Sequence record: ON645936.1
Direction: 5' to 3' (one strand)
Length of the DNA: 64,000 nucleotides
Origin: Escherichia phage N2
A program made the translations under genes and the position numbers. Positions 42,080 through 46,232 of the stretch are shown here, one piece after another; positions within the stretch are counted from its first letter, which is position 1, and every line of letters starts with the position of its first letter. The notes below the pieces were generated by a model. That model was given only the letters and a program-made list of their open reading frames with translations. It made no database searches and had not been told where the DNA came from.

Positions 42080-42550
42080 TTAATCATGTTTCCACACCCC
42101 ATCGGTATTTGACCAAAGTCGCTGATTATCTGAACCTCGCCACAGCTTTTTGGTTGGAAGATTTTTCTCATACTTCCCATCAATAATAACATCAACATAT
42201 TTAAGCATTTCTAGTTGTTTAATATCTTCAAACTTGTACCCTGTCCACAACCAAATGCTTTTATTTGGATAAAGATTTTTTACAGTTTGAACAATGCAAT
42301 GAACATCATCTCGGTTATCAGGATAAAGAGGGTCACCTCCAGTTATAGTTAATCCTTCTATATAATCATTATTCAAACATTCAATTAATTGTTCTAGTGT
42401 TTCACCAGTAAATGGAACGCCATTTCTAGCATTCCATGTTGATTTATTATAACACCCTTCGCATTTATGCAAACAACCTGTAACGAAAAGAACTGTCCTG
42501 CATCCAGGACCATTAACAAAGCAGCACGGGTATATTCTGTCATAATTCAT
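42080..42550 (-). CDS. nrdG: anaerobic RNR activating enzyme (radical SAM)
   Basis: 156 aa from ATG at 42550; CLHKCEGC cluster motif. Confidence 0.85.
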   Translation of the reverse strand: MNYDRIYPCCFVNGPGCRTVLFVTGCLHKCEGCYNKSTWNARNGVPFTGETLEQLIECLNNDYIEGLTITGGDPLYPDNRDDVHCIVQTVKNLYPNKSIWLWTGYKFEDIKQLEMLKYVDVIIDGKYEKNLPTKKLWRGSDNQRLWSNTDGVWKHD

Positions 42551-43377
42551 AATAATATCCAATTTTTCCAAGCTTCATCAGTAGAATTACAGCGTTTTAG
42601 TATAAGATGTCTAGAAACTTTTATGGCATTTGAGCACTTTTTAATTGAATCATATTTAATACCGTCAACTGAAACGGTTTTGCTAGTTGGAGAAATTTTT
42701 CCATACATTGGATTTTTTGAACCAACTTGAAGTCCTTTTAAAGCTTTTGAAAGCTTTTGTCTAGATTCCAATGACATGGGAGAATTCTTTTTACCTTCAA
42801 TAATTCGCTTGCGATGAAGTTCGCGTTCTTCTTCACTCAAAGAATTGTAATATTTTTTAACACCGTTTGATATAGATAATTTATCTTTCTCAGACCGCTC
42901 TCCAGCTAATTTACTTCTAACATCTTTTCGCTTCATAGCTATGCTTACGGCTTTATTTAAATTTGCTTGATGCTCTGGCGTACGTTTATATTTCTTTAAA
43001 GCACGTGAAATAGCTATTTTAGTTTCTTCTGTTCTCTTTTTACCTTTATTTGCTAAACTATTTTTGCGGCGATGTTCAAGTGTCTGTTCATAGGCAGTTC
43101 CACCTTTTCCACCAGGTTTAATATTATATGTATTTTCTTTTAGACAATACTCTTCGGTTACAAGTTCAGCTTCTTTATCATACATTTGTTTTTCATTATC
43201 AAAAACATGTAAAATTTCTTTATTAAAATTTTTTCTACCATATTTTAATAAAGCGGCACGAATCAATGTTCCTGACCCCATATAACCGTCATTTATGTTA
43301 TCGGTGCTATGCGCACCGATATATTCCTTTGAATTAATTATATTTGTTATTTTATAAATTATATAATACCTATGCAT
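42547..43377 (-). CDS. GIY-YIG homing endonuclease between nrdD and nrdG
   Basis: 276 aa; YIIYKITN...EYIGAH; start overlaps nrdD stop by 8 nt. Confidence 0.6.
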   Translation of the reverse strand: MHRYYIIYKITNIINSKEYIGAHSTDNINDGYMGSGTLIRAALLKYGRKNFNKEILHVFDNEKQMYDKEAELVTEEYCLKENTYNIKPGGKGGTAYEQTLEHRRKNSLANKGKKRTEETKIAISRALKKYKRTPEHQANLNKAVSIAMKRKDVRSKLAGERSEKDKLSISNGVKKYYNSLSEEERELHRKRIIEGKKNSPMSLESRQKLSKALKGLQVGSKNPMYGKISPTSKTVSVDGIKYDSIKKCSNAIKVSRHLILKRCNSTDEAWKNWILL

Positions 43378-44644
43378 GTTTTACTCGTTTTACCATTTCT
43401 TTCATTTTACCTAAATTCCATGGAACAACGCTAGGAGTTCCAAGATATCCGCATGTTCTTCTTATTGTGTTCATCTTTTTAGGATCAGTTTCTCCACAAA
43501 TAGAACAAACAAATCCGTTTTCAGTAGGAGTCATTTCATGGGTACTTCCACATGTAAAACATTTATCTACTGGCATATTAACACCAAAATAATCTAAATG
43601 TTGTGCAGCATAATCCCATACAGCCTCAAGACCTTTTAGGTTATTTTTCATATCAGGAAGTTCAACATAAGAAATGTGACCACCTGTCGCAATGAAATGA
43701 TACGGGGCTTCGCGAGAAATCTTTTCAAACGGAGTAATATTTTCTTCTACTGAAACGTGGAAACTGTTAGTATACCAGCCTTTATCGGTAACATCTTTTA
43801 CACTTCCATATTTCTCAGTATCAAGTTTACAGAAGCGATAGCACAGGTTTTCAGCAGGAGTAGAATACAAACTAAAAGCAAATCCGGTTCTTTCAGTCCA
43901 CTGCTTAAGACGAGCATTCATTTTAGTTAAAATTTCTTGTCCAATATCACGACCGACAAGAATATTCAATTCGTGAATACCAATGTATCCTAAGGACACT
44001 GAACTTCTACCGTTTTTAAATAACTCAATTATATCGTCATCAGGTTTAAGACGAACCCCGAATGCACCTTCTTGGTAAAGAATAGGAGCAACAGTCGCTT
44101 TAACTCCTTTTAAGGAACTAATTCTACACATCAAAGCTTCAAAACATAAATCCATTCGTTCATTGAACAATTCGGCAAATTTCTGTTCATTGAACTGTGT
44201 TCCAATATAAGAATCTAACGCAATACGAGGAAGATTCAGTGTTACAACGCCAAGATTATTACGTCCATCAAGAATTTCATTACCAGTGGAATCTTTCCAT
44301 ACGCCCAAGAAACTACGACAACCCATTGGAGAAACAGGAATAGATGAACCTGTGATAGCTTTATTGTTCTTAGCTGAAATAATATCAGGATACATCCTTT
44401 TGCTTGCGCACTCTAAAGCAAGCTGCTTAATATCATAGTTCGGATCGTCTTTATAAAGATTAACACCCTCTTCAACGAACATAACAAGCTTAGGGAAAAT
44501 AGGAGTTATCCCATCACGACCGAGACCTTTAATACGATTTTTCAGAATTGCTTTCTGAATCATTCGTTCAGTCCAGTCAGTTCCCGTGCCAAACGTAATT
44601 GTTACAAAAGGCGTTTGTCCATTAGAGCTGAAAAGTGTATTTAC
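43370..44644 (-). CDS. nrdD: anaerobic ribonucleotide reductase NrdD, exon 2 (5' boundary approximate)
   Basis: C-terminal glycyl-radical motif RRTCGYLG and CxxC..CxxC zinc ribbon; splice site not mapped. Confidence 0.75.
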   Translation of the reverse strand, partial: VNTLFSSNGQTPFVTITFGTGTDWTERMIQKAILKNRIKGLGRDGITPIFPKLVMFVEEGVNLYKDDPNYDIKQLALECASKRMYPDIISAKNNKAITGSSIPVSPMGCRSFLGVWKDSTGNEILDGRNNLGVVTLNLPRIALDSYIGTQFNEQKFAELFNERMDLCFEALMCRISSLKGVKATVAPILYQEGAFGVRLKPDDDIIELFKNGRSSVSLGYIGIHELNILVGRDIGQEILTKMNARLKQWTERTGFAFSLYSTPAENLCYRFCKLDTEKYGSVKDVTDKGWYTNSFHVSVEENITPFEKISREAPYHFIATGGHISYVELPDMKNNLKGLEAVWDYAAQHLDYFGVNMPVDKCFTCGSTHEMTPTENGFVCSICGETDPKKMNTIRRTCGYLGTPSVVPWNLGKMKEMVKRVKHA

Positions 44645-44675
44645 TTCATCATTATATTCAGCATGAGTCGCAAAT

Positions 44676-45446
44676 TCATGCCCGTTTATATGAAACAACA
44701 AAATTTGGATAGTCCATAGATATGCAACGTTCTTTTATAGTGCTAGGATGAAAATTTAGCGCTTTAGCTGCTTCTATATAAGACGTATACTTAATACCGT
44801 CAACAACCACATATTCAGGAACTTTATGAATAGTAGTCTTAATACTCAAAACAAGAGGATGAGTTTCGACTTCACTTTCAGTGCAATTTAAATATTCCGC
44901 TGCTTTTTTAAAACTTCTAAAAGTTTTATTTTTAAGCTTTATCGATACTTGTTTTTTACTTTTTCGACTATTGATATTATTTTGCACATGTTCCTTAGAT
45001 CTTCCGTTTTTAGCATAATATTCAGCTACAGAAGATTTTATATTGTTTTTATGAGATTCGGATAACACTTTACCCTTATGAGCATCTCTTAATTTTTGAA
45101 TATGTTCTTCAGTATCCGGATGCTTATAAAACTTTTTACCGCCTATGGATTTATTTAAACATTTTTTGCTATAAAAATATTTACGTATGACCTCTTCTTC
45201 ATGTTTTAATGCATCTTTATAACTATCAAATGTTTTTAAAATTATCCATTTAGTAGGTGTATCAGTTTTTAAGCGTTCATTTATATACTTAGATGACGTT
45301 GTGTAAGTTTTCCAGTTTGTGGGCTTGTTTTTAATTGTTCTAAATTTTTTATAACCGATATAAATGTCGCCATTAGAAAACTTAACTAAGTATGTAAATG
45401 CGTCTTTATCTTTTATTTTAGTACAACGTCTTTTTATCCATTTCAT
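44676..45446 (-). CDS. intron-encoded GIY-YIG endonuclease (I-TevII-like)
   Basis: 256 aa; YLVKFSNGDIYIGYKK; GAGGTG SD; late promoter upstream. Confidence 0.65.
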   Translation of the reverse strand: MKWIKRRCTKIKDKDAFTYLVKFSNGDIYIGYKKFRTIKNKPTNWKTYTTSSKYINERLKTDTPTKWIILKTFDSYKDALKHEEEVIRKYFYSKKCLNKSIGGKKFYKHPDTEEHIQKLRDAHKGKVLSESHKNNIKSSVAEYYAKNGRSKEHVQNNINSRKSKKQVSIKLKNKTFRSFKKAAEYLNCTESEVETHPLVLSIKTTIHKVPEYVVVDGIKYTSYIEAAKALNFHPSTIKERCISMDYPNFVVSYKRA

Positions 45447-45475
45447 TGTTTCACCTCGTATTCATAAGATAATCT

Positions 45476-45483
45476 TATTTATA
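45476..45483 (-). promoter_or_regulatory. late promoter inside nrdD intron
   Basis: exact TATAAATA on minus strand about 30 nt before endonuclease ATG 45446. Confidence 0.55.
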
Positions 45484-45689
45484 CAAGATGACTGCTGCAT
45501 GTCGCCATGCAGATTAGACTATATCTTCATCTTTCGATGCCGGCCGTTTCGAATAGCATTAGCTTCTATTCTACACCGCTACATTCATCACGGTTAGTCG
45601 TTAGGCATTTAGTTCAAAAGAACATTTAGCACGGGATTGTCTACTAGAGAGGTTCCCCGTTTAGACCGGTTTTACATGAGCCTGAATTA

Positions 45690-46232
45690 AATTAACTCAT
45701 ACGCCTGGAATGCATCGTATACGTCTTTTTCTGTTTTAGATTGGGCATAATTCAATGCATCTGCGATTTGCCATTTTTCCGCGTCCTCAATATGTTTTGC
45801 ATAGGTGCGTTTAACATAAGGAGAAAGTACTTTATCTACATTCGCAAAAGTCGTTCCACCATATTGATGGGAAGCAACCTGTGCAGTAATTTGTGCCATA
45901 ATTGCAGTAGCAACGCCAATTGATTTAGGAGTTTCAATTTGAGCATTGCCTAATTTAAATCCATTCTCAAGCATCCCCTTTAAATCGACTAAACAGCAAT
46001 TAGTAAATGGAAGAGCAGGGGAATAATCAATATCGTGCACGTGAATAATTCCGCTTTCATGCGCTTTCATAATAAAAGACGGGACCATATTTTTGGCAAT
46101 GTGCTTAGACACAATACCAGCCATAAGGTCCCGTTGAGTTGGAAAAACACGAGAATCTTTATTAGCATTCTCGTTTAAAAGGTCTTTATTAGTTTTATGA
46201 ATCAATCCTTCAATTTCTTTTTCAATTGTCAT
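45690..46232 (-). CDS. nrdD: anaerobic ribonucleotide reductase NrdD, exon 1 (3' boundary approximate)
   Basis: 181-aa N-terminal part; frame closes at 45687 at intron edge. Confidence 0.75.

Follow-up and report, generated by a model that had tools for sequence, protein, structure and literature searches.

A probable mobile group I intron in nrdD of Escherichia phage N2, diverged from the T4 sunY allele at the same site

The 64,000-nt stretch of Escherichia phage N2 DNA analyzed here (sequence record ON645936.1; hereafter the window) carries an interrupted nrdD gene on its minus strand, within the gene order 49 (endonuclease VII), nrdD, a GIY-YIG gene, and nrdG. The source of the window is a Tequatrovirus (T4-like) phage; the 5 kb around nrdD are 98.3% identical to Salmonella phage GRNsp7 and Shigella phage SP21535, and the same neighborhood is matched by ~1200 Tevenvirinae-type records. 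Two minus-strand open reading frames (ORFs) hold the N- and C-terminal parts of NrdD (Table 1), and a further ORF of 256 amino acids (aa) lies between the two coding blocks. An earlier reading of the letters (the original prediction) had put this arrangement down to a ~1 kb group I intron carrying a GIY-YIG endonuclease under a late promoter, and had likened it to the T4 nrdD (sunY) intron and its endonuclease I-TevII, both of which are textbook objects. The split into two listed ORFs was confirmed, and the interpretation is supported in kind and position; the element is of a known kind but a distinct allele.

The boundaries of the interruption were obtained by global alignment of 46232..43370 (minus strand) to the uninterrupted 1818-nt nrdD of phage RB69. 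The alignment consists of two blocks, gene nt 1-538 and 1584-2863, with a 1045-nt insert after nrdD nt 538; in an equivalent alignment, the T4 insert is 1033 nt long and sits at the identical position. The exons end and resume at ...GCGTATGAGT followed by TAATTTAATT... on the 5' side and at ...GAATATAATG followed by ATGAAGTAAAT... on the 3' side. Exon 1 ends in ...UAUGAGU, the final 6 nt of which are the 5' strand of P1, and the intron runs from UAAUUUAAU... to ...AAUAAUG with a terminal G. In codons, exon 1 amounts to 179 1/3 and exon 2 to 425 2/3, in near agreement with the ~181 and ~424 aa given earlier. Spliced in silico, they encode a 605-aa NrdD with no internal stop that equals T4 NrdD at 590 of 606 positions (97%, stop included), matches Pfam NRDD over the entire profile (E 3.8e-171), and also matches Gly_radical; the alignment of the joined exons, which had been set beforehand as a refutation test, is thus continuous. 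Exon 2 codes for the glycyl-radical motif RRTCGYLG and a Cys4 zinc ribbon and lacks an evident translation start, the listed ORF starting instead at a TTG within the intron that overlaps the 3' end of the endonuclease ORF. Reading on from exon 1, an in-frame UAA occurs two codons into the intron.

A search of 44500..45900 (1.4 kb) returned Rfam family RF00028 at 45730..45495 of the minus strand, with 70.6 bits against a gathering threshold of 50 (E 1.5e-17) and over model positions 1-253 of 253. The covariance-model search that had been proposed as a check on the group I assignment therefore gave a full-length match, with the splice sites themselves fixed by the RB69 alignment. In P1, AUGAGU (45700..45695) pairs with GCUCAU (45681..45676), leaving a U.G pair at the 5' splice site; P3 is CCGGUC/GGCCGG, P7 is GACUA/UAGUC, and P9 is CUGCAUG/CAUGCAG. 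Further core helices are P4, P5, P6/P6a, P7.1, P7.2, and P8, among which P7.1 (ACCGU/GCGGU) and P7.2 (GAAUAG/CUAUUC) are RNAalifold predictions backed by double changes. The presence of P7.1 and P7.2 between P7 and P3' places the intron in the IA2 type, the subgroup that these helices are said to mark in the classification of Michel and Westhof. A candidate P10 may also be read from the letters, as UUCA in the internal guide complements UGAA at exon 2 positions 2-5 (44648..44645); the T4 equivalent is UCA/UGA. The stretch 45447..45689 had previously been described as GC-richer and hairpin-rich. The former holds relative to the ORF (0.415 in the core upstream of it versus 0.26-0.29) and is only marginal relative to the exons (0.37-0.40), while the latter resolves into two separate items, the ribozyme core (45694..45495) and a regulatory hairpin (45491..45451).

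Covariation was assessed in six phage introns aligned after deletion of their ORFs: the nrdD introns of the window, T4, JSE, and Vibrio phage F101, and the td introns of T4 and CJY920. The JSE and F101 introns occupy a second nrdD site, and the CJY920 td intron is naturally ORF-less. With no prior structure, RNAalifold recovered P3, P4, P5, P6a, P7.1, P7.2, P8, P9, and P9.2. For pair counts, two spurious RNAalifold helices were removed and P6 and the P7 pseudoknot were added, giving 53 pairs in 11 helices. Across these, 97.1% of cells were paired, versus 36-40% with slid partners; double changes were present in 21 pairs, and none of 500 shuffles reached any of five covariation measures. P7 is invariant across the aligned introns and hence uninformative for covariation. 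The Rfam match and the covariation are far beyond chance.

A pairwise comparison with the T4 nrdD intron, covering 62 pairs, found 43 unaltered, 3 with a change in one partner, 15 compensatory, and 1 broken; this helix table was anchored by hand, since MAFFT shifted the 5' arm of T4 P9.2 by one column. With 15 pairs changed in a compensatory manner relative to T4, all IA2 helices are kept; J8/7, P7, and the terminal G are identical in the two introns. Compensatory change is also seen in the remote 3' domain. Here, P9.2 is formed by GCAUGA (44681..44676) and UCAUGC (44666..44661) around the GCGA-containing loop AUUUGCGAC, and 4 of its 6 pairs are compensatory relative to T4. The T4, JSE, F101, and td introns have a hairpin at the same place with differing stems, a loop containing GCGA or ACGA, and then CUGAAC...G or CGAAC...G. 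The last codons and the stop of the endonuclease ORF form the 5' arm of P9.2, as they do in T4. The ORF thus forms a loop that separates P9 from P9.2, and splicing would require the 3' splice site to be brought back to the core across ~800 nt.

The identification of the intron ORF as a GIY-YIG gene was also upheld. It passes Pfam PF19835 (SegE_GIY-YIG) marginally, with 26.6 bits against a cutoff of 25 over residues 9-86, and matches NUMOD1 (25.3 bits, cutoff 22.8) and the PHROG 314 homing endonuclease family (E 3.6e-29); a sequence search of the PDB with the protein returned none at E<=1. The protein is colinear with T4 I-TevII over its full length at 56% identity (E 9e-86), distributed as 57% in the N-terminal, 59% in the middle, and 53% in the C-terminal third. 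The motifs FTY(17-19)...YIG(29-31) and Asn98 align with both I-TevI and I-TevII, and the equivalents of the catalytic Arg and Glu have no confident placement against I-TevI, to which identity is only 21%. Between the window and T4 alleles, nonsynonymous (dN) and synonymous (dS) divergence of the ORF are 0.38 and 1.52, a ratio of 0.25 that indicates purifying selection on the protein. The nrdD exons have values of 0.019 (dN) and 0.28 (dS), and the much higher dS of the ORF therefore makes the intron alleles several-fold older than the divergence of the host genes. The lower identity of the C-terminal, presumed DNA-binding third leaves room for altered specificity, and the endonuclease may have a target preference shifted from that of I-TevII.

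Upstream of the endonuclease ATG, the letters of the exact late-promoter consensus TATAAATA and of the Shine-Dalgarno sequence GAGGTG were confirmed, and the position of TATAAATA is conserved with the T4 intron. Folding of this region predicts a hairpin with an 11-bp outer stem, UCAUCUUGUAU with AUACGAGGUGA, that buries GAGGUG (-17.3 kcal/mol, z -5.1; equally stable shuffles, 0/200). The T4 counterpart has -15.5 kcal/mol and z -5.4. T4 has exactly the same 3' arm, AUACGAGGUGAAAC; the 5' arms differ by C-to-U changes after which pairing persists as G.U, and 11 nt inserted here but absent from T4 fold into a 6-bp inner stem. The late-promoter and hairpin arrangement of the T4 nrdD intron has been described (PMC2988022). 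The 5' arm ends within TATAAATA, so that a late transcript with its start a few nucleotides further downstream would not include the arm, and its ribosome-binding site would be exposed.

In a tblastn search of the phage database, 44 records were at least 95% identical to the window ORF and T4-type I-TevII records were 55.6-57% identical, with none between; the ORF is 100% identical in at least 18 records. The full 1045-nt intron occurs at >=99.4% identity in 43 Tequatrovirus records, ten of them at 100%, while in some of these phages identity to the window is no more than 95-98% over the 5-kb neighborhood. A near-identical intron within divergent flanks agrees with an old element that has recently spread by horizontal transfer. 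Most of the intron-bearing records annotate two NrdD fragments and a "homing endonuclease" or "hypothetical protein." The endonuclease ORF is frameshifted in vB_EcoM_F1, vB_EcoM_FN, and 236Ecol005PP, and BYEP01 and 215Ecol030PP carry ORF-deleted mini-introns that arose by independent deletions between short repeats (ACGTTG and AAGAC; microhomology) and that both retain the core and P9.2.

Intronless relatives were sampled by scanning IMG/VR with the exon 2 protein; among 16 loci, 15 were intronless, 1 had a T4-type intron, and none had the window type. The junction reads TATGAAT/ATGAAG in 15 of 15 intronless loci, the common allele being TATGAATATGAAGTAAATACTCTC, whereas both intron-bearing alleles read TATGAGT before the insertion. 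Exon position -2 is accordingly G in both intron alleles, where it pairs in P1, and A in all intronless loci. Relative to T4, synonymous changes are densest in the 60 nt immediately 3' of the junction (12/60), which we take to be the region that I-TevII binds and cuts, and this peak fits co-converted donor sequence.

Table 1. Positions of features at the nrdD locus of the window and of related introns in other phages (positions in the latter refer to the locus named)
Feature	Position	Strand	Description
nrdD exon 1	45695..46232	-	538 nt = 179 codons + 1 nt; alignment to RB69 and T4 nrdD
Group I (IA2-type) intron	44650..45694	-	1045 nt; single insertion relative to RB69 nrdD
nrdD exon 2	43370..44649	-	1280 nt including stop
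ORF, N-terminal part of NrdD	45687..46232	-	181 aa
ORF, C-terminal part of NrdD	43370..44701	-	443 aa, from upstream TTG
Ribozyme core, P1 to P9	45495..45700	-	RF00028 match, RNAalifold, pair counts, helix comparison with T4
Candidate P10 strand UUCA of internal guide	45683..45686	-	Read from sequence
Exact T4 late-promoter consensus TATAAATA	45476..45483	-	Overlaps end of hairpin 5' arm
Shine-Dalgarno-sequestering hairpin (predicted)	45451..45491	-	Folding of 55 nt upstream of ATG
Shine-Dalgarno GAGGUG	45452..45457	-	5 nt upstream of ATG at 45446
GIY-YIG homing endonuclease gene, diverged ortholog of I-TevII	44676..45446	-	256 aa, between P9 and P9.2
3' terminal domain	44650..44681	-	P9.2 hairpin, then CUGAAUAUAAUG; terminal G at 44650
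Free-standing GIY-YIG gene between nrdD and nrdG	42547..43377	-	276 aa
Divergent 3' block of nrdD	43370..43447	-	Final 78 nt of the gene
JSE nrdD intron	L004 1498..2245		
Vibrio phage F101 nrdD intron	L005 875..~1618		3' splice site placed from sequence, not annotated
CJY920 td intron	L006 1449..1720		P6a is window-type nrdD hairpin GTTCTTTTGAAC
236Ecol005PP td intron	L028		P6a is window-type nrdD hairpin GTTCTTTTGAAC
GRNsp7 td intron	L027		P6a is T4-type nrdD hairpin CAGCAGTAGCTG; own nrdD intron is window-type
BYEP01 td intron	L029		P6a is a td deletion remnant
BYEP01 ORF-deleted nrdD mini-intron	L025 301..645		345 nt; intron nt 264-963 lost
215Ecol030PP ORF-deleted nrdD mini-intron	L026 301..779		479 nt; intron nt 289-854 lost

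We put the probability at roughly 90% that the nrdD gene of the window carries a mobile, self-splicing IA2 group I intron at the T4 sunY site, an anciently diverged sister allele that has recently spread among Tequatroviruses. The gene structure, the RNA-model match, the covariation, the family of the ORF, the divergence, and the distribution are direct observations. The intron would be transcribed within the nrdD pre-mRNA, where the UAA two codons in would stop ribosomes reading on from exon 1. Its 5' 200 nt would fold as the catalytic core, onto which P9.2 and the terminal G, lying ~800 nt away beyond the ORF, would dock, and ligation of the exons would restore the message for the 605-aa NrdD. 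By analogy with T4, early and middle read-through transcripts would form the 11-bp hairpin and bury the endonuclease Shine-Dalgarno sequence, and late transcripts from just downstream of TATAAATA would be made without the 5' arm and hence be translatable. The endonuclease would then cut intronless nrdD near the insertion site, and repair would copy the intron together with flanking exon sequence.

Several points weigh against this reading. When the whole 64-kb window was searched with Rfam at gathering thresholds, no family was listed, a miss that we attribute to speed filters (other structured RNAs in the window may have escaped the same scan). The score from the shorter search is below the 105.3 bits of the T4 intron, run as a control in the same kind of search, and the fourth P5 pair is broken (C-U). 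The TATAAATA motif is not over-represented, with 5 occurrences in the window versus 10 expected, and its weight rests on positional conservation and not on motif statistics. The nrdD gene is dispensable in aerobic laboratory growth, so a copy that does not splice could persist for a while. Finally, splicing, the late start site, late expression, cleavage by the endonuclease and its target, and homing are all inferred by us from sequence.

The lower RF00028 score and the broken P5 pair, together with the two NrdD fragments given in most GenBank records, could be taken to mean that the element is a decayed relic in which splicing is absent or too poor, leaving nrdD as a pseudogene or as a gene for two polypeptides like the mobE-split nrdA of phage Aeh1. 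We regard this as improbable, as compensatory changes maintain all core helices, as the catalytic joining segments do not differ from those of T4, and as the exons remain in frame at the low dN and dS given above, with position -2 of exon 1 co-adapted to P1. In the natural deletions the ORF is gone but the core and the 3' domain are left in place, a pattern to be expected under selection for splicing; moreover, a polypeptide made from exon 1 would be missing the glycyl-radical domain, and exon 2 has no evident start. A non-spliced split gene of the Aeh1 nrdA/mobE kind was rejected on the RNA evidence. Somewhat less improbable, yet still unlikely in our view, is an intron that splices but whose endonuclease lacks activity or now serves another function (e.g., as an autorepressor or maturase), so that the element is immobile. 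Such a state would agree with the relatives whose ORFs are frameshifted or deleted and with the ambiguous placement of the catalytic Arg and Glu relative to I-TevI. It fits poorly with an ORF that is intact and identical in so many records, that retains YIG and the conserved Asn, and that evolves with a dN/dS of 0.25, and with a near-identical intron in phages with differing flanks, which indicates recent spread.

The remaining alternative takes the likeness to T4 at face value: the element would simply be the T4 nrdD (sunY) intron with I-TevII, and the window would come from T4 or a trivially different strain. The gene, the insertion site, the ORF position, and the layout of promoter and Shine-Dalgarno sequence are indeed the same, and the flanking 49, nrdD, and nrdG are T4-like. 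The comparison made in the original prediction thus stands for architecture and position. It fails for the allele: the core is ~79% identical and the ORF DNA 67%, versus 93-95% for the exons, the endonuclease is 56% identical to I-TevII in a database with two discrete classes and nothing between them, 15 pairs have changed in a compensatory manner, and the gene downstream of nrdD is a SegH-like GIY-YIG gene and not mobC. Identity with the T4 allele is ruled out by these figures, and we leave this alternative next to no probability. The preferred explanation therefore remains a mobile IA2 intron that is a sister allele of the T4 intron.

One further idea about the endonuclease gene was considered and set aside. 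The sequence CTTATGAATACGAGGTGAA, in the ribosome-binding-site region within 45434..45465 (minus strand), resembles the nrdD exon junction. It agrees at 16 of 19 positions with the T4-type junction CTTATGAGTATGAAGTGAA (13/1000 shuffles score as high) and at 16 of 19 with the intronless consensus junction CTTATGAATATGAAGTAAA (35/1000), whereas 168/1000 shuffles match the phage's own exons as well as it does. The likeness is weakly compatible with an operator for autorepression or with a past invasion by the endonuclease gene, and we do not take it as a finding.

The immediate neighborhood of nrdD includes a second GIY-YIG gene. This free-standing gene lies where T4 has the HNH gene mobC in an otherwise identical order; its first 8 nt overlap the end of nrdD, and its stop overlaps the nrdG ATG (ATGA). 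It has NUMOD3, a weak I-TevI DNA-binding-like match, and a PHROG 314 match (E 2.4e-60), and it is named SegH in some GenBank relatives. According to the title of a 2005 paper cited in PMC2988022, SegH replaces mobC in several T4-related phages. A divergent block abuts this SegH-like/mobC swap: in the final 78 nt of nrdD, 32 nt differ from T4, versus ~5% in the remainder of the gene, and 11 of the last 22 residues of NrdD differ (TPSVVPWNLGKMKEMVKRVKHA versus NPNERGFNLGKNKEIMHRVKHQ in T4). The block may be an endonuclease target or immunity region, or co-converted donor sequence.

The core of the intron is a mosaic, with modules shared with the td intron and with other phage nrdD introns. Its 5' end is closest to the T4 nrdD intron (84%); P4-P5 equals the T4 td intron at 30 of 30 aligned nt, versus 70% identity to the T4 nrdD intron; P6/P6a equals the ORF-less td intron of CJY920 at 26 of 26; and P7.1 is 90-95% identical to the nrdD introns of JSE and F101. 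ORF-less td introns (~260 nt, no I-TevI) occur in several Tequatroviruses and have three forms of P6a (Table 1). In CJY920, 236Ecol005PP, and GRNsp7, an nrdD-type P6a hairpin replaces the loop that holds I-TevI. These chimeric td introns look like natural td-nrdD gene conversion, which suggests that the td endonuclease gene was lost by conversion from nrdD introns. We propose only tentatively, at odds a little short of even, that the window-type nrdD intron is itself a natural product of module exchange between td and nrdD introns, seemingly in both directions; in it, a P4-P5 that equals that of td is combined with a 5' end, an insertion site, and an ORF of nrdD type. Domain shuffling of this kind was reportedly obtained in the laboratory by Bryk and Belfort in 1990. 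If true, introns would repeatedly lose their homing endonuclease genes in nature through gene conversion by another intron.

A description of the diverged allele was not found in the searchable literature, and an earlier one may nevertheless exist. The element is present in public genomes, where it is usually misannotated, and does not overturn current understanding. Its value is of several kinds: (i) the exact splice sites allow a correct joined nrdD coding sequence in most of the 43 public genomes, and the intron can go unnoticed by Rfam run on whole genomes with default settings; (ii) comparison of the two alleles tests the sunY ribozyme fold, with its remote 3' domain, by natural covariation; (iii) a second endonuclease, encoded by an intron at the same site, becomes available for comparisons of specificity; and (iv) together with the chimeric td introns, it offers field evidence for intron exchange and for the cycle of gain, decay, and loss of homing endonuclease genes.

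Compared with known systems, the window intron is nearest in architecture to the T4 nrdD (sunY) intron. Both interrupt codon Tyr180, share the sequence of P1 with its splice-site U.G, are IA2 introns with P7.1 and P7.2, and have an ORF that follows P9 and is followed in turn by P9.2 and the 3' splice site, its stop lying within the 5' arm of P9.2; TATAAATA, the sequestering hairpin with its 3' arm, and a colinear GIY-YIG protein are also common to both. They differ in length, in that I-TevII has 258 aa versus 256 here and the T4 intron has 1033 nt versus 1045, and in structure, as the window intron has a P8 with a GAAA loop, unlike T4, and a 6-bp P7.2 with a longer loop that is unrelated to GGGUC/GACCC of T4. 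The T4 td intron belongs to the same phage IA2 family, and its J6/7 and P7 5' strand are 100% identical to those of the window intron; its GIY-YIG endonuclease I-TevI is likewise under late-promoter and hairpin control (PMC2988022). In contrast, the td intron lies in another host gene, has a P2 helix and a P7.1 without the GAUGAAUGUA loop, and holds its ORF in the P6a loop rather than after P9, and I-TevI is the far more distant protein. The nrdD genes of Krischvirus JSE and Vibrio phage F101 are also interrupted, at a different site, SPMG/CRSF (the region of the active-site Cys), by introns that carry an HNH endonuclease in P6a and not a GIY-YIG endonuclease after P9. Even so, their cores are as close to that of the window intron as is the core of the T4 nrdD intron, with P4-P5 at 72-90% identity besides the similarity in P7.1, and they share with it a P9.2 with a GCGA loop and a CUGAAC...G 3' end.

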